Positions 229 to 5,285 of a DNA stretch of 5,337 nucleotides are shown piece after piece. The notes below the pieces were generated by a model. It was given only the letters and a program-made list of their open reading frames with translations, did not search any database and was not told the DNA's origin. A program made the translations under genes and the position numbers. How positions within the stretch are numbered: the first letter of the stretch is position 1; every line of letters begins with the position of its first letter. The stretch lies in IMG/VR virus record IMGVR_UViG_2548876943_000007. One strand, given 5' to 3'. The DNA comes from a virus. Lineage: Duplodnaviria > Heunggongvirae > Uroviricota > Caudoviricetes.

Positions 229-534
229 TCAATCGTAATAAGCTGGAATTGATTTTCCGCGTTGCTTCTGGCGGCCTGAGCAGGTCACCCCCATTTCACT
301 GCGTGGTTTGCGGTAGTAAATACGGTTCTGTTTACGCTCGACTTCTTCTGCCTTCTTGCAGCGAAGGCTTCCGAGTGATGCTGCTTTATCTGCTCTGACG
401 CAACCAGAGAGCTTTAGCGCAATTTTTCGCGCCAGTCGCTGCTCTTGCATTGCCTGTTCACGTTGAGCCTGTCTGCGTGATCTGCGGCGATTTCTGGCGT
501 TATCGTCAGCCAGATATGTAATGACTACTGTCAT
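229..534 (-). CDS. N: Antitermination protein N-like (101 aa)
   Basis: ORF track 229..534 (-). N-terminal arginine-rich motif (NARNRRRSRRQAQREQ) resembles the boxB-binding ARM of lambda N. C-terminal YYRKPRSEMGVTCSGRQKQRGKSIPA resembles the lambda N C-terminus (WYSKPGERGITCSGRQKIKGKSIPLI) as recalled from memory. GGAGG lies 5 nt upstream of the ATG (complement of 537-541). Sits downstream of nutL and pL as in lambda. Confidence 0.85.
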   Translation of the reverse strand: MTVVITYLADDNARNRRRSRRQAQREQAMQEQRLARKIALKLSGCVRADKAASLGSLRCKKAEEVERKQNRIYYRKPRSEMGVTCSGRQKQRGKSIPAYYD

Positions 535-845
535 GTTGACCTCCGATGAAACAACTTTGGAATTTTTTTATTACAAAGTGGTTTCCTTCCCCGCCAATTA
601 GACGGGGATGGAAGAGCATTTATGAGCCTTTATGGACTCTGCTCGATCAGTTCTATTTAATTAATCTCTCAATTGAATGTAAGTATTCACATAAATCCTC
701 CTACCTCTTGTGCAGCTTTCTTGAATATGGTGGCGGCTGCATAACGCCTATGGAATTGACTTTGGCGGTGACGCGCCGGGTGCTTATCTTCCGGTTGCCG
801 TCGTGCAGCTGCACTTCACGTCACCCCAAAGCCAACTACTCTTTG

Positions 846-889
846 GTTCCCGCATTTCGGCGGGACAATCCCATCAATGTTAAAGAACC
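846..889 (-). promoter_or_regulatory. nutL site: boxA (complement of 878-889, GGTTCTTTAACA) and boxB hairpin (complement of 848-865, TCCCGC-CGAAAT-GCGGGA)
   Basis: The 18-nt boxB hairpin on the minus strand is identical to the boxB hairpin found on the plus strand downstream of cro (2545-2562). boxA resembles the CGCTCTTTAACA consensus. boxA precedes boxB by about 12 nt. The site lies between the predicted pL and N. Confidence 0.8.
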
Positions 890-934
890 TGCCAATCTTT
901 TCCGTTTGGCTTCCAGCTTCCTGCTGATGGCTAA

Positions 935-1022
935 AGAATACTGTAGGTATTTTATTGTGCAAATACCCAAGGTATTTATTTTTGATGAAATAATGATAAG
1001 CAAATGAATACAAAGGATATTT
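935..1022 (-). promoter_or_regulatory. OL/pL region: operators OL-a (936-952, GAATACTGTAGGTATTT), OL-b (961-977, AAATACCCAAGGTATTT), possible OL-c (1006-1022, GAATACAAAGGATATTT); candidate pL -35 TTTGCA (complement of 958-963) and -10 TATTCT (complement of 935-940)
   Basis: Imperfect palindromes of the form AATAC-N5-GTATT recur here and in the cI-cro intergenic region. OL-b closely matches OR-a (AAATACCCTGAGTATTG) and OL-a matches OR-b (GAATACCTGTAGTATTC). Promoter hexamers with a 17-bp spacer overlap the operators and point leftward toward nutL and N. Confidence 0.7.
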
Positions 1023-1107
1023 ATTTTTTCGGTGTCTGCTTGTTCAGTGCTTTTTATGCGGGATATGTGAAGTGGATCCCGATAGCTATTGCTGCCGGGA
1101 TTATAGG

Positions 1108-1476
1108 TTAGTCAGCGAAGGTTAAGACGAGAATTACCTTAATGATGTCTGCTACAACAGACACGGCCATAGATAAACCAAAGACGATCCAAGCCACAGT
1201 GATGTCTTCACTACCATCGTATAGAGTTCCGTAATCACTGGTGTAAGGCGTAAATGTCGCGCCTTGATACAATAGGTATAAGCTTGATCCATAGAGGATA
1301 AATGCAGATATCCCTTGTATTGCTATGATCACCAGAATCATGAAACGAGCTGATCTATGCGCCCAAGCCTGGCTTATTTTTTCTGATAGAGATTTCGCAA
1401 TAAAAGCATGCGCTAAGCCGTAAATTGTCGAGATTGCCAACATCCCAAAAAAGCTTGCTATAGCGGTTCCAACCAT
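1108..1476 (-). CDS. Small integral membrane protein (122 aa, about 3 predicted TM helices), co-oriented with and immediately downstream of cI; candidate lysogen-expressed exclusion or defence protein
   Basis: ORF track 1108..1476 (-). Three long hydrophobic stretches (about residues 2-27, 45-70, 93-119) flank an acidic and aromatic loop (TPYTSDYGTLYDGSEDIT). RBS AAGGGGG lies about 7 nt upstream of the ATG. Only 18 bp separate the cI stop from this start, which implies co-transcription from pRM. It occupies the slot between cI and pL that lambda uses for rexA-rexB. No sequence family recognised. Confidence 0.7.
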   Translation of the reverse strand: MVGTAIASFFGMLAISTIYGLAHAFIAKSLSEKISQAWAHRSARFMILVIIAIQGISAFILYGSSLYLLYQGATFTPYTSDYGTLYDGSEDITVAWIVFGLSMAVSVVADIIKVILVLTFAD

Positions 1477-1494
1477 AAGCGCCCCCTTGCGTGA

Positions 1495-2211
1495 TCAAAC
1501 CAGCCTTAGTTTTGTCTCAATTGCAACGCCTATAATCTTGCAGTTTCCATTGATTGGCACGAGAGGCCATGCAGGGTTAAGTCCCTTGAGGTATTTATTT
1601 CCGCCGTCGATTATCAGCTTCTTGAATGTTGCTTCGTTAGAGTCAGAAAGTTTTGCTATGACCAAGCTGCCGTTGATCGCCTCCCTTCCGGTATCGAAAA
1701 GAACGAATGTTCCCTCTGGAATGCTTAACCCAACCGGTGCCGTCATTGAATCACCTTCCACTTTAAGCCAGAACGCATTACCTTGAATATGCGCGTCAGA
1801 CTCAAGCCAAACATCTATGTCTTTAATGGTGTATGGTTCGCATGCTTCACACCACGAGCCAGCCTGGATACTGCTTAACACCGGATACCTCTTTCCTGCT
1901 CTGTATTCCCCTGCATACCTTACGTTGGCATCGCTCTTAAGGCTTTCTGCCTGTTCTGCAACCTTGGCAGCAATTGACTGGCTAAAATCAGCAATTGAGA
2001 CTTGCAACAAACGTGCAAAACCAGATGCGACCTCAACGTTTAGCGCGTTTCTGCCATTAAGATAATGCCCTACCGCTCCTTGGGTGATACCCAGTTCATC
2101 AGCGATTGAGTATTGGGTTATTCCCAATTCTTTCTTTTTTGACTCATACAAAGCCTTAAGCCGCTTAGCGTCTTCGAGCTGTTCTGTCGTCAGTGATTTT
2201 TTATTTTCCAT
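1495..2211 (-). CDS. cI: CI-type phage repressor (238 aa): N-terminal HTH plus C-terminal LexA-like S24 autopeptidase domain
   Basis: ORF track 1495..2211 (-). HTH segment ITQYSIADELGITQGAVGHYLNG. C-terminal region RYPVLSSIQAGSW...AFWLKVEGDSMTAP...ATFKKLI resembles lambda cI (Ala-Gly cleavage site, catalytic Ser in GDSM, Lys in FKKL) as recalled from memory. Divergent from cro across an operator-rich intergenic region. No Shine-Dalgarno precedes the ATG. Confidence 0.95.
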   Translation of the reverse strand: MENKKSLTTEQLEDAKRLKALYESKKKELGITQYSIADELGITQGAVGHYLNGRNALNVEVASGFARLLQVSIADFSQSIAAKVAEQAESLKSDANVRYAGEYRAGKRYPVLSSIQAGSWCEACEPYTIKDIDVWLESDAHIQGNAFWLKVEGDSMTAPVGLSIPEGTFVLFDTGREAINGSLVIAKLSDSNEATFKKLIIDGGNKYLKGLNPAWPLVPINGNCKIIGVAIETKLRLV

Positions 2212-2295
2212 AGCTTAATTCTAATAGCTAAGGTACTTAAACTAAAAATACCCTGAGTATTGATTGCTTTGAATACCTGTAGTATTCTTTGTTCA
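2212..2295. promoter_or_regulatory. OR switch region: operators OR-c (2223-2237, AATAGCTAAGGTACT, degenerate), OR-a (2246-2262), OR-b (2271-2287); candidate pR -35 TTGATT (2260-2265) and -10 TATTCT (2283-2288); candidate pRM -10 TAGAAT (complement of 2218-2223)
   Basis: Three AATAC-N5-GTATT-type imperfect palindromes spaced about 24-25 bp centre to centre between the divergent cI and cro starts. Promoter-like hexamers overlap the operators in both directions. The pRM -10 sits 6 nt from the cI ATG, implying a leaderless cI mRNA. Confidence 0.7.
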
Positions 2296-2317
2296 TGGTT
2301 AATAACGGAGAGTGCAT

Positions 2318-2512
2318 ATGATTCGAATGACACTTGCCGATTACGCCAAAATCCATGGACAGGCTAAAGCAGCCAGTGACTTTGGTGTAATCCAGTGCGC
2401 TATCAGCAAGGCCATTCTGGCAGGCCGTAACATTATGGTTACGGTAAAGCCTGATGGCAGTGTGATTGGAGAGGAAGTTCGTCCTTTCCCAAGCAACAAG
2501 AAAAACAAATAG
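2318..2512 (+). CDS. cro: Cro-like repressor (64 aa from ATG 2318; the ORF track begins at an upstream in-frame GTG at 2312)
   Basis: Translation [64 protein letters not shown] closely resembles lambda Cro ([59 protein letters not shown]) as recalled from memory. GGAG at 2306-2309 lies 8 nt before the ATG at 2318. Divergent from cI. Confidence 0.9.
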
Positions 2513-2518
2513 TAACAC

Positions 2519-2563
2519 CGCTCTTTAACAGTCATGGTCCTCATTCCCGCCGAAATGCGGGAA
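2519..2563 (+). promoter_or_regulatory. nutR site: boxA CGCTCTTTAACA (2519-2530) and boxB hairpin TTCCCGC-CGAAAT-GCGGGAA (2544-2563)
   Basis: boxA matches the consensus. A perfect 7-bp stem with a 6-nt loop follows 13 nt downstream. The same hairpin occurs in inverted orientation at nutL. Location between cro and cII matches lambda nutR. Confidence 0.85.
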
Positions 2564-2569
2564 TACAAC

Positions 2570-2600
2570 GCGCATAAGTTGATGCGCATAACTTCTTATT
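2570..2600 (+). terminator. tR1-like hairpin (GCGCAT-AAGTTG-ATGCGC, 2570-2587) followed by a U-rich tract (AUAACUUCUUAUU)
   Basis: A 6-bp GC-rich perfect stem with a 6-nt loop directly downstream of nutR and upstream of cII, followed by a moderately U-rich tail. This is the position of lambda tR1, which N antitermination overrides. Confidence 0.4.
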
Positions 2601-2620
2601 AGTTAAGGAAATACTTACAT

Positions 2621-2899
2621 ATGCAACTTACAAGTACTCGCAAGAAAGCGAATGCAATTACAAGCAACATCCTGAATCGAATTGCTGTACGTGGTCAGCG
2701 AAAGGTTGCCGACGCGTTAGGGATTAATGAATCGCAAATTTCGCGATGGAAAGACAGCTTCATCCCCAAAATGGGAATGCTTCTTGCTGTTCTTGAATGG
2801 GGTGTTGAAGACGAGGAGTTGGCGGAACTGGCTAAGAAAGTAGCCAGAATGCTGACAAAAGAAAAAGCCCCGAAGAACGGCGAATTCTTCGAGGCCTGA
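2621..2899 (+). CDS. cII: CII-like transcriptional activator (92 aa)
   Basis: ORF track 2621..2899 (+). Segment ESQISRWKDSFIPKMGMLLAVLEWGVEDEELAELAKKVARMLT closely resembles lambda CII (KSQISRWKRDWIPKFSMLLAVLEWGVVDDDMARLARQVAAILT) as recalled from memory. AAGGA lies upstream of the ATG. Position after cro and nutR. Confidence 0.9.
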   Translation: MQLTSTRKKANAITSNILNRIAVRGQRKVADALGINESQISRWKDSFIPKMGMLLAVLEWGVEDEELAELAKKVARMLTKEKAPKNGEFFEA

Positions 2900-2933
2900 T
2901 GTAGAAAGACTGGATCAATCCACAGGAGTAATT

Positions 2934-3095
2934 ATGACAAAACGTCGTAAGAAATACCAGGAAAAAGAAGAGATTCGACACCCTGATTCACCTGAGGGAT
3001 TAGTGGTAGCCGCAGCAAATAACAGGGCGTTCGCAGAGCGCCTTGTTGGTGTTTACAGACTAGCCAAAGCAGGAGTGAAACATGGGCGTCGTTAA
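2934..3095 (+). CDS. Small basic hypothetical protein (53 aa) between cII and O, overlapping the O start by 14 nt
   Basis: ATG at 2934 preceded by AGGAG (2924-2928) at 5-nt spacing. Translation [53 protein letters not shown], stop TAA at 3093-3095. Absent from the ORF track only because it is shorter than the track's length cutoff. No family recognised. Confidence 0.5.
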   Translation: MTKRRKKYQEKEEIRHPDSPEGLVVAAANNRAFAERLVGVYRLAKAGVKHGRR

Positions 3096-3912
3096 GTTAG
3101 CTGATTACAGGCCTCAACTGGAGGTCGTGGAGCATCGCGTGGCAGAACTCGAAGATGGCTACACTCGGACTGCAAACACACTGTTAGAAGCCGCCATGCT
3201 TTCTGGACTTACTCTACATCAGTTACTGATTGTTATGGCTGTGTGGCGCAAGACATACGGTTACAACAAAAAAATAGATTGGATCGGAAACGAACAGTTC
3301 GCTGAACTCACTGGCATGGCACCAACCAAATGTTCTACCGCCAAAAACGAGCTTATCAGAATGGGAGTTCTCATTCAGGTGGGGCGTCAAGTTGGTATGA
3401 ATACAAACATTTCAGAGTGGAAAACGAAAGTTAACGGATTTGGTAAAACATTTACCAAATCGGTAAAACAAACCTTCACTAAATCGGTAAAAAGCAATTT
3501 ACCGAATCAGTCAAACACAAAAGACAATATACAAAAGACAATAAATACAAATACCCCCTTACCCCCTAACGGGGGCGGCGATGGGCAGGTTAAACCTGAA
3601 CGTCGCAAGGCAGAACGAATCGACTACGAATCCTTCCTGAACGCCTACAACGCCGAAGTCGGTGACAGACTGCCACACGCTGTTGCGGTCAACGAGAAAC
3701 GCAAACGCCGCCTGAAGAAAATCATCCCGCAACTGAAAACGCCAAATGTGGACGGTTTCAGAGCGTATGTCAGGGCGTTTGTGCATCAGGCCAAACCGTT
3801 TTACTTCGGAGACAACGACACGGGCTGGACGGCTGATTTTGATTACCTGCTGAGGGAAGACTCGTTAACGGGAGTTCGGGAAGGGAAGTTTGCAGACAGG
3901 GGGATTGCATGA
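3082..3912 (+). CDS. O: Replication initiator, lambda O-like (276 aa), with the origin embedded in the coding sequence
   Basis: ORF track 3082..3912 (+). N-terminal region [15 protein letters not shown]...[45 protein letters not shown]...NISEW resembles the lambda O origin-binding domain as recalled from memory. A central low-complexity linker ([47 protein letters not shown]) is encoded by the iteron and AT-rich DNA. The stop overlaps the helicase start (ATGA at 3909-3912). Confidence 0.9.
3439..3580. repeat. Candidate origin of replication: dyad iterons (3439-3459 TTTGGTAAA-ACA-TTTACCAAA; 3484-3505 TCGGTAAA-AAGCAA-TTTACCGA; GGTAAAA repeated at 3442, 3462, 3485), an AT-rich tract with tandem CAAAAGACAATA (3508-3553), then a GC-rich CCCCC...GGGGG element (3554-3580)
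   Basis: Directly visible repeated and inverted GGTAAA/TTTACC motifs inside the O-like gene, followed by an A-rich region and a GC-rich dyad. This is the same layout as lambda ori (iterons, AT-rich region, palindrome) inside the O gene. Confidence 0.8.
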
Positions 3913-5285
3913 GACAGGATATCGAAGCGAGCGTTATCGGTGGCCTGCTGATTGGTGGATTAACTCCAACCGCCAGTGACGTTCTGGCAACGCTTGAGCC
4001 GGAAGCGTTTTCAATTCCGCTCTACAGGAAAGCCTTCGAGGTTATCCGCAAGCAGGCGCGAAACAGAAACCTAATCGACGCGCTGATGGTTGCCGAGGCG
4101 TGCGGAGAGGAGCATTTCACGTCAATCCTGATGACCAGCAAAAACTGCCCGAGTGCCGCAAACCTGAAGGGATATGCCGGAATGGTCGCGGATAACTATC
4201 ACCGCCGTCTGGTGCTGGAAATCATGGATGAAATGCGTGAACCAATTCAGAGCGGAACCATCGACGCATCGAGTCAGGCGATGGACGAGCTTGTAAAGCG
4301 TCTTTCAGCCATCAGAAAGCCCCGTGACGAGGTTAAACCTGTACGGTTAGGGGAAATCATCACCGACTACACTGACACGCTTGACAGGCGTCTGAGGAAC
4401 GGAGAAGAGTCAGATACCCTGAAGACCGGAATCGAAGAACTTGACGCCATCACCGGAGGGATGAACGCAGAAGACCTGGTGATTATCGCCGCTCGTCCTG
4501 GTATGGGGAAAACCGAACTGGCGCTGAAGATTGCCGAAGGTGTTGCAAGCCGCGTTATTCCTGGTTCTGACGTCAGGCGCGGAGTGTTGATTTTCTCGAT
4601 GGAAATGAGCGCATTGCAGATTGCAGAGCGAAGCATTGCCAACGCCGGGAGGATGTCGGTTAGCGTGCTACGAAATCCTGCATCGATGGATGACGAAGGC
4701 TGGGCACGTGTTGCTAACGGCATGAGTCAGCTTGCAGATTTGGATGTATGGGTAGTCGATGCCTCGCGGTTATCGGTAGAAGAAATTCGCTCAATCGCAG
4801 AGCGGCACAAACAGGAAAATCCAAACCTGTCACTCATCATGGCGGATTATCTTGGCCTGATTGAGAAGCCGAAAGCAGACCGCAACGACCTCGCAATTGC
4901 TCACATCTCAGGAAGCCTTAAGGCGATGGCGAAAGACCTGAAAACGCCAGTTATCTCCCTGAGTCAGCTTTCGCGCGATGTTGAGAAGCGACCAAACAAA
5001 CGCCCGACAAACGCAGATTTGCGTGATTCAGGAAGCATTGAACAGGACGCAGACTCAATCATCATGCTCTATCGGGAAGCGGTATATGACGAGAACAGTA
5101 GCGCCGCACCATTTGCTGAAATCATTGTGACGAAAAACCGTTTTGGCTCGCTTGGTACGGTTTACCAGCGGTTCTGCAACGGACACTTTGTTGCATGTGA
5201 CCAGGATGAAGCCAGACAGATTTGCACAGCATCAAATGCACCTGCTGCGCGTGGCAGACGATATGCACAAGGGGCTGACGTATGA
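3909..5285 (+). CDS. Replicative DNA helicase, DnaB family (458 aa; P22 gene 12-like)
   Basis: ORF track 3909..5285 (+). Walker [15 protein letters not shown], Walker B-like [10 protein letters not shown], and [39 protein letters not shown] matching the DnaB motifs (SQLNR...[17 protein letters not shown]) as recalled from memory. Translationally coupled to the O-like gene. Confidence 0.95.

Follow-up and report, generated by a model that had tools for sequence, protein, structure and literature searches.

The DNA considered here, which we call the window, is the whole 5,337-nucleotide stretch of IMG/VR virus record IMGVR_UViG_2548876943_000007 (Caudoviricetes), and our subject is a pair of matched hairpins in it, candidates for the N-utilization sites nutL and nutR. 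The 18-mer TCCCGCCGAAATGCGGGA occurs in the window as two exact copies, one on the plus strand at 2545-2562 and one on the minus strand at 848-865. A third copy was not found in the window at up to two mismatches, and 200 dinucleotide shuffles of the window gave no match. With the repeat finder, the identity of the inverted copies grew to 19 nt (847-865 and 2545-2563, 100% complementary). The putative boxB hairpin of nutR (2543-2564, plus strand) has an 8-bp stem, AUUCCCGC/GCGGGAAU, and the loop CGAAAU, its core at 2545-2562 being common to nutL. That of nutL (848-865, minus strand) carries the same loop on a 6-bp stem, UCCCGC/GCGGGA. When 22-mers were folded as RNA, the nutR hairpin (8-bp stem, 6-nt loop CGAAAU) reached -11.7 kcal/mol with z = -3.3, and the nutL hairpin (6-bp stem, same loop) -10.5 kcal/mol with z = -3.8. 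In 61-nt contexts the fold z-scores of the two nut sites were not significant (-0.9 and -0.7), and the minimum-energy fold of nutL was an alternative that disrupts boxB. The predicted pair probabilities of the nutR boxB in a 71-nt context were 0.99-1.0.

A boxA element precedes each hairpin in its transcript. The nutR boxA, CGCTCTTTAACA (2519-2530, plus strand), was read directly; it lies 14 nt upstream of boxB and at the start of the nutR feature mapped from coliphage HK620, which is discussed below. The nutL boxA, GGTTCTTTAACA (889-878, minus strand), also read directly, lies 12 nt upstream of its boxB, which falls inside the mapped HK620 nutL feature. These two sites were the only matches to YTCTTTAACA in the window at up to one mismatch, where 0.81 were expected by chance, and boxA reads CGCTCTTTAACA or TGCTCTTTAACA in 102 of 105 IMG/VR nutR copies. 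Both sites therefore show the order of a nut site, boxA and then a boxB stem-loop on the transcribed strand.

The genes and promoters around the hairpins have the layout of a two-site system, with nutL between pL and N and nutR between cro and cII. On the left, pL (~963-928, minus strand) was mapped from the HK620 annotation, with hexamers TTGCAC...TATTCT read by eye, and would start the nutL/N transcript, of which nutL occupies roughly +40 to +81. The operators OL1-OL3 (936-952, 961-977 and 983-999, minus strand) come from the same annotation, and the repeat finder returned their 17-bp repeats independently. The N gene itself (534-229, minus strand, 101 aa) lies downstream of nutL and matches phrog_271, 'anti-termination protein N-like', with E = 1.5e-35. 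On the right, OR3-OR1 and pR span 2221-2295 on the plus strand (HK620 annotation, +/-1 nt because of one alignment indel) and would start the cro/nutR transcript. We read pR at ~2260-2295, with hexamers TTGATT and TATTCT separated by 17 nt, and OR1, GAATACCTGTAGTATTC, at 2271-2287, by direct reading and with the repeat finder. The cro gene (2318-2512, plus strand; Pfam Cro, E = 3.6e-26), to which HK620 cro maps, ends 6 nt before the nutR boxA, so that nutR directly follows cro, as in lambda; cII (2621-2899, plus strand; Pfam Phage_CII) comes next. Together with cI (2211-1495, minus strand; HTH_3 and Peptidase_S24), the operators and cro are the immunity cassette, and the two nut sites bracket it.

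A first-pass annotation had called the identical inverted boxB pair, a boxA-like element before each copy, an N gene beyond nutL and a cro gene before nutR, and it had proposed that the pair places pL and pR independently of any promoter prediction. All of this stands: exact-match search and the repeat finder recovered the pair, the folding that it had suggested gave the proposed hairpin at both sites, the Pfam Cro and phrog_271 matches confirm the gene context, and the positions of nutL and nutR agree with pL/OL and pR/OR as mapped from HK620. The promoter scan of the window found neither pL nor pR, its sole call lying on the wrong strand inside cro. The nut pair fixes the early transcription map of the prophage without promoter prediction, as pL-nutL-N to the left and pR-cro-nutR-cII to the right.

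The predicted N protein combines an N-terminal arginine-rich motif (ARM) with a C-terminal region homologous to the part of lambda N that binds RNA polymerase. A stretch of it, residues 62-98, aligns with residues 74-109 of lambda N in PDB 6GOV (E = 6e-7), which together with the phrog_271 match upholds the N call; over residues 37-97 it shares 88.5% identity with phi21 N. The presumed boxB reader, NARNRRRSRRQAQREQ, occupies residues 12-27 (codons at 454-501, minus strand). Judged by its sequence, the open reading frame (ORF) is a genuine N homologue.

Different phages combine the same ARM and N-terminal 60 residues with C-terminal modules of at least three unrelated types, with a mosaic joint near residue 60-64 of N. 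The module of the window (229-345), shared with CUS-3, is lambda/phi21-like (...RIYYRKPRSEMGVTC...); HK620 and HK140 have a P22-like one (...CLPNVAIYAAGYRKSKQLTAR), and a third type (...LGNKIHAVQRIRLYSKPPYGAY) was found at locus L006.

HK620 and the distribution of the module

Coliphage HK620 and the window share 98.4% identity over window positions 755-2943. Record AF335538 of HK620 carries a feature 'nutL; putative N-utilization leftward' at 7753-7794 (42 nt) and another, 'nutR; putative N-utilization rightward', at 9423-9468 (46 nt). Taking the GenBank features as source and mapping them through alignment offsets, we placed them at 848-889 and 2519-2564 of the window, with identity over 41 of 42 nt for nutL and 46 of 46 nt for nutR and with flanking synteny. 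The same record annotates pL, OL1-3, tIMM, OR1-3, pR, tR1 and pRE, the 'tR1' being a 7-nt annotation immediately 3' of nutR. Elements flagged as boxA also appear in the HK140, HK630 and mEpX2 records, and the module is present in CUS-3, HK140, HK630, mEpX2, HF4s and others. The two sites are thus already known, having been annotated in GenBank (HK620) since 2001, and belong to a common E. coli prophage module. HK620 was reportedly described by Clark et al. in 2001 (J Mol Biol 311:657). HK620 and the window have operators, cI, cro and cII in common, and the first 64 residues of N are 97% identical. HK620 differs in lacking a 205-bp insert in the N leader (window 550-754), which the window shares with CUS-3 and HK140, and in the P22-type C-terminus of its N, that of the window being of the lambda/phi21 type; two substitutions in turn set the window apart, C-to-U in the nutL boxA and Ala19Ser in the ARM.

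Among 5,426 complete E. coli genomes, the nutR 61-mer was found in 501 (529 places; exact in 363 genomes), the nutL 61-mer in 496 (526 places) and the 86-mer encoding the ARM in 495 (524 places), so that the module occurs in about 9% of them. With the sites in GenBank since 2001 and the module in ~1/11 of complete E. coli genomes, the biological addition made by this window is small.

Of the IMG/VR contigs that contain the 18-mer, 93 out of 120 have the divergent pair with boxA. The spacing of the pair ranges from 1135 to 2973 bp and falls into about ten classes. Homology between the window and representatives of the other spacing classes extends from N past nutL to ~929-948, breaks, and restarts at ~2511-2520, at the nutR boxA, and CUS-3 shows the same pattern of break and restart. 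These breaks indicate that exchange affects the operator-cI-cro cassette and leaves the nut sites together with N and cII.

The ARM and the loop also travel together. With one exception (NSRRARR), every one of the ~75 IMG/VR N-terminal sequences read has NRRRARR beside this boxB. An ARM of the form A[R/K]NRRR[A/S]RR accompanies the loop CGAAAU in the window, HK620, CUS-3, HK140, loci L006 and L135, and all but that one of the IMG/VR sequences. The form AKSRY[K/R]ARR goes with the loops CUAACC, CUAACA, CUAAUC and CUGACA in phi21 as carried by lambda imm21 (L003), in an Stx1 phage (L004) and in a Pantoea prophage (L007), and the P22-type ARM GNAKTRRHERRR goes with GACAA in SH2026Stx1 (L260). The upstream context ...TGGCAGGCTCTTTAAC... 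is common to all three classes, and the N of the Pantoea prophage starts with the same residues as that of the window, MTVVITYLA. ARM and boxB are thus inherited jointly, as a specificity pair. The search of genome contigs with the N-terminal 55 aa confirmed at least two loci, one of which, the Pantoea prophage, is the phi21-like outgroup.

The stems vary in a way that preserves pairing. In variant sites with the same loop the stems differ yet remain complementary, as in GUCUCCAC/GUGGAGAU at L133. Across 11 distinct hexaloop sites, changes were seen on both sides in seven of the eight stem pairs, 90.7% of the cells were paired, against at most 53.5% with slid partners, and the covariation score was 0.69, compared with 0.30 in shuffles and matched by none of 500 shuffles; the set is small and hand-assembled, and L129 and L133 entered it through a filter that requires a stem, which biases it towards pairing. 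Stem covariation around a fixed loop suggests that boxB is conserved as an RNA structure, in a manner supportive rather than rigorous. Given co-occurrence, independence from the cassette, co-variation of ARM and loop, and stem covariation, the sites are more than an annotation carried over by homology.

A scan of viral contigs that allowed a closing pair other than C-G returned 120 loci, essentially all chance matches. The sole survivor of the stem filter, L222, has an AU-rich stem of 5 bp, lies in no nut context and was not used.

Proposed antitermination and its alternatives

We consider it very probable that the matched hairpins are nutL and nutR of an HK620-type lambdoid prophage. By analogy with lambda, the transcripts from pL and pR would each expose boxA and then, 12-14 nt later, the boxB hairpin. 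The arginine-rich N-terminal helix of the prophage's own N (NARNRRR[S/A]RRQAQREQ) would bind the nascent RNA at the hexaloop and upper stem of boxB; NusB/NusE would occupy boxA, and NusA and NusG would then join. The C-terminal, lambda-like part of N would hold this complex on RNA polymerase and modify the polymerase to ignore terminators, giving read-through of those downstream of N on the left and of tR1 and later terminators on the right. It is from this analogy that we infer N binding, the involvement of Nus factors and antitermination, and from the co-segregation of ARM and loop types that we infer orthogonality to other N proteins.

Several observations weigh against the interpretation of the hairpins as nut sites. 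Rfam at E <= 1 gave no match anywhere in the window, and it has no curated nut/boxB family. The Pfam N_peptide model scored the N protein at 18.6 bits, under its cutoff of 27.9, and NCBIfam gave no match to N. No intrinsic terminator was detected within the window downstream of either nut site on the relevant strands; tR1 of lambda is Rho-dependent. The literature search turned up no experiment on this N/boxB pair, and the GenBank features are worded as 'putative'. To these points are added the pairing bias of the covariation set and the effect of a sequence change on the predicted nutL fold.

That change is one of two that are private to the window. The third base of the nutL boxA (window 887) is U here (GGUUCUUUAACA), where the common form is GGCUCUUUAACA and relatives have GGCTCTTTAACA. 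A T at this base was seen in none of 106 IMG/VR nutL copies, which all have C, and none of the 496 E. coli genomes carrying the site matches the nutL 61-mer of the window exactly. Residue 19 of the ARM (478-480) is Ser here and Ala in relatives; Ser19 is absent from the ~75 IMG/VR N-terminal sequences read, and there is no exact match to the window's ARM 86-mer in the 495 E. coli genomes with that site. With the C-to-U change, boxA becomes complementary to the 3' arm of the nutL boxB, and the boxB pair probabilities predicted in the 71-nt context fall from 0.8-0.99 to 0.23-0.30. On this folding model nutL may be less effective here than in relatives. Since private changes are expected at 1-2% divergence, we draw no functional conclusion from them.

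One could go further and regard the left site as impaired, the two private changes being marks of a decaying or attenuated antitermination module. Their absence from the 106 nutL copies, the ~75 N-terminal sequences and the ~495 E. coli genomes would fit, as would the position of the boxA change within the conserved GCUCUUUA core and the drop in predicted boxB pairing. However, no ORF of the region is disrupted, the fold of the 381-nt leader retains boxB, Ala-to-Ser is conservative, and the divergence of ~1-2% from the nearest relatives would by chance leave one private change per 60-90 nt, so that we find impairment improbable. It is somewhat easier to believe, though still unlikely, that the nut sites are real while their specificity is not distinct, a lambda- or phi21-type N being able to cross-recognise this boxB. 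The ARM aligns with lambda AQTRRRERRAEKQAQ, without significance, and keeps the lambda RRRxRR spacing; the GAAA at the core of the loop has the GNRA form, in common with the folded lambda pentaloop, and both the scaffold and two thirds of N resemble those of phi21. Set against this are the strict co-segregation of ARM and loop, across ~75 loci and sister lineages with phi21-like loops, a hexaloop closed by C-G where the lambda pentaloop is closed by U-A, and the fact that the residue aligned with lambda Trp18 is not aromatic here.

The remaining alternatives deny that the hairpins bind N. The repeat might act as DNA, the two copies being conserved inverted boundary sequences that serve as homology patches for exchange of the cI/cro module. 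The mosaic breakpoints do adjoin the nut sites, about ten different cassettes lie between copies of the same pair, and the CUS-3 record calls the stretch containing nutL 'bsq5; boundary sequence'. A DNA-level role would not account for compensatory stem changes that keep the RNA hairpin while the loop stays fixed, for the orientation of both copies with boxA before boxB in the transcript, or for a loop type that tracks the ARM of N, and we hold it to be very unlikely; any role as a recombination linker is likely a by-product of conservation and not an alternative function. An operator reading of the repeat was also considered and rejected as the primary function. A role of the hairpins in intrinsic termination or RNA processing instead is scarcely credible, for although both are stable, GC-rich and placed in leader or intergenic RNA, neither is followed by a U-run, the terminator scan does not call them, and they stand 12-14 nt after a boxA with a loop that co-varies with the ARM.

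The N leader and other features of the window

The region around and downstream of nutL has several features of its own. Just 3' of the nutL boxB, the sequence AAAGAG (839-844, minus strand) is complementary to the boxA core CUCUUU (boxA 878-889). Where nutL has the usual C, the fold of lowest energy pairs AAAGAG with the boxA core around boxB. A partly conserved version, AAAGUG, occurs in L135 and in the Pantoea prophage, and the pairing may represent an alternative NUT RNA structure. Between nutL and the start of N lies the 205-bp stretch (550-754, minus strand) that is absent in HK620 and present in HK140 and in CUS-3, where it is part of 'bsq5'. CCAAAGT is repeated near both of its junctions (765-759 and 560-554). 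The insert contains a strong Shine-Dalgarno sequence, AGGAGGA (702-696), followed by a start-stop mini-ORF, ATG-TGA (692-687), conserved in HK140 and CUS-3, and a CCCC/GGGG hairpin at ~612-586. The whole leader (900-520, minus strand) folds with z = -4.7. In the ~75 IMG/VR relatives the distance from boxA to AUG ranges from 149 to 603 nt, which marks the N leader as a hot spot for insertion.

Outside the leader, a predicted membrane protein of 122 aa (1476-1108, minus strand; an ORF call, HK620 hkaS, phrog_6534 of unknown function) lies between cI and pL, at the position of lambda rexAB, and may be an exclusion or moron gene expressed in the lysogen. A terminator-like hairpin with 14 pairs and a T-run (2865-2897, minus strand) lies opposite cII and overlaps its 3' end; placement and orientation agree with the terminator of the lambda oop antisense RNA, and Rfam gave no match to it. 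Downstream of cII are O (3082-3912, plus strand; Pfam Phage_rep_O) and a DnaB-like helicase (3909-5285, plus strand; Pfam DnaB). A direct repeat of ~23 nt (AAACATTTACCAAATCGGTAAAA and variants), present in three to four copies at 3431-3515 within O and showing inverted symmetry internally, resembles ori iterons, comparable to the O/ori arrangement of lambda.

Comparison with the lambda, P22 and phi21 systems

The system shares with lambda its layout, its promoter-to-nut geometry, the RRRxRR spacing in the ARM, a GNRA-type loop chemistry and the RNA polymerase-binding C-terminal region of N noted above. It differs in the sites themselves, since in lambda the loop is a pentaloop, GAAAA or GAAGA, on a stem of 5 bp, boxA (CGCTCTTA) has 8 nt and the spacer 8-9 nt, whereas here a hexaloop sits on a stem of 6-8 bp. 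Trp18 of lambda N has a role in the N-boxB structure; the ARM of the window contains no Trp and offers no aromatic counterpart. The boxB is thus not of the lambda type. The first-pass annotation had noted a loop unlike the GAAAA-type pentaloop of lambda and had suggested a distinct specificity, to be examined by alignment of the ARM. The loop difference holds, and the alignment showed NARNRRRSRRQAQREQ to differ from the ARMs of lambda, P22 and phi21.

P22 gp24 (PDB 1A4T), whose type is also found in some Stx phages, has the same boxA context, GGCTCTTTAAC..., but a GACAA pentaloop and the ARM GNAKTRRHERRRKLAIERD. SH2026Stx1, a member of the P22 class, carries the same lambda/phi21-type C-terminal module of N as the window. 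Because it shares both that module and the boxA context, only the ARM and boxB are swapped between the classes. The identity of 88.5% with phi21 over N residues 37-97 likewise restricts the swap to the hairpin and the ~35 residues at the N-terminus.

The closest comparison is with phi21. The window and phi21 have in common a 12-nt, rrn-like boxA (xGCTCTTTAACA) with its flanks and a long spacer, about 16 nt in both. Their loops are both 6 nt long; position 1 is C, positions 3 and 4 are A, and a pair of pyrimidines flanks a turn of 4 nt. With the same boxA, long spacer and 6-nt loop, the module is, on sequence grounds, related by descent to that of phi21. The NMR (nuclear magnetic resonance) structure of the phi21 N/boxB complex, PDB 1NYB, is said to be that of Cilley & Williamson, 2003. 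Position by position, C-UAAC-C of phi21 corresponds to C-GAAA-U of the window. The phi21 loop CUAACC is described as one in which a non-canonical C-C pair flanks a UMAC fold that resembles GNRA (PDB 1NYB, according to PMC12550061). By this correspondence, the loop of the window would be a canonical GNRA tetraloop over a C-U mismatch.

The differences from phi21 are equally clear: the loop core is UAAC (UMAC) there and GAAA (GNRA) here, the flanking pair C-C there and C-U here, the ARM SRYKARR there and NRRRSRR here, and the nutL and nutR stems, identical in the window, differ from each other in phi21. With a loop CGAAAU and an ARM NRRRSRR on a shared scaffold, the HK620-type boxB is, as far as these sequence features tell, a sister class to the phi21 type and not a member of it. 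A specificity distinct from those of lambda, P22 and phi21 is plausible. Since the scaffold is that of phi21 while the loop core is GAAA in place of UAAC and the ARM core N-R-R-R in place of S-R-Y-K, a separate class is probable; that the HK620-type pair makes up a fourth class of ARM-hairpin specificity, which would descend from the phi21 scaffold and be orthogonal to the N proteins of lambda, P22 and phi21, we regard as an evenly balanced proposition. Such a class would have arisen by a change from UAAC to GAAA in the loop and from S-R-Y-K to N-R-R-R in the ARM. If so, it would offer a natural two-step path for N/boxB divergence and one more orthogonal pair for RNA tethering. The relation to phi21 is clean to an unusual degree, with a GNRA core for a UMAC core and two ARM residues changed, and makes this very common class a convenient subject for a natural experiment on the evolution of peptide-RNA specificity.

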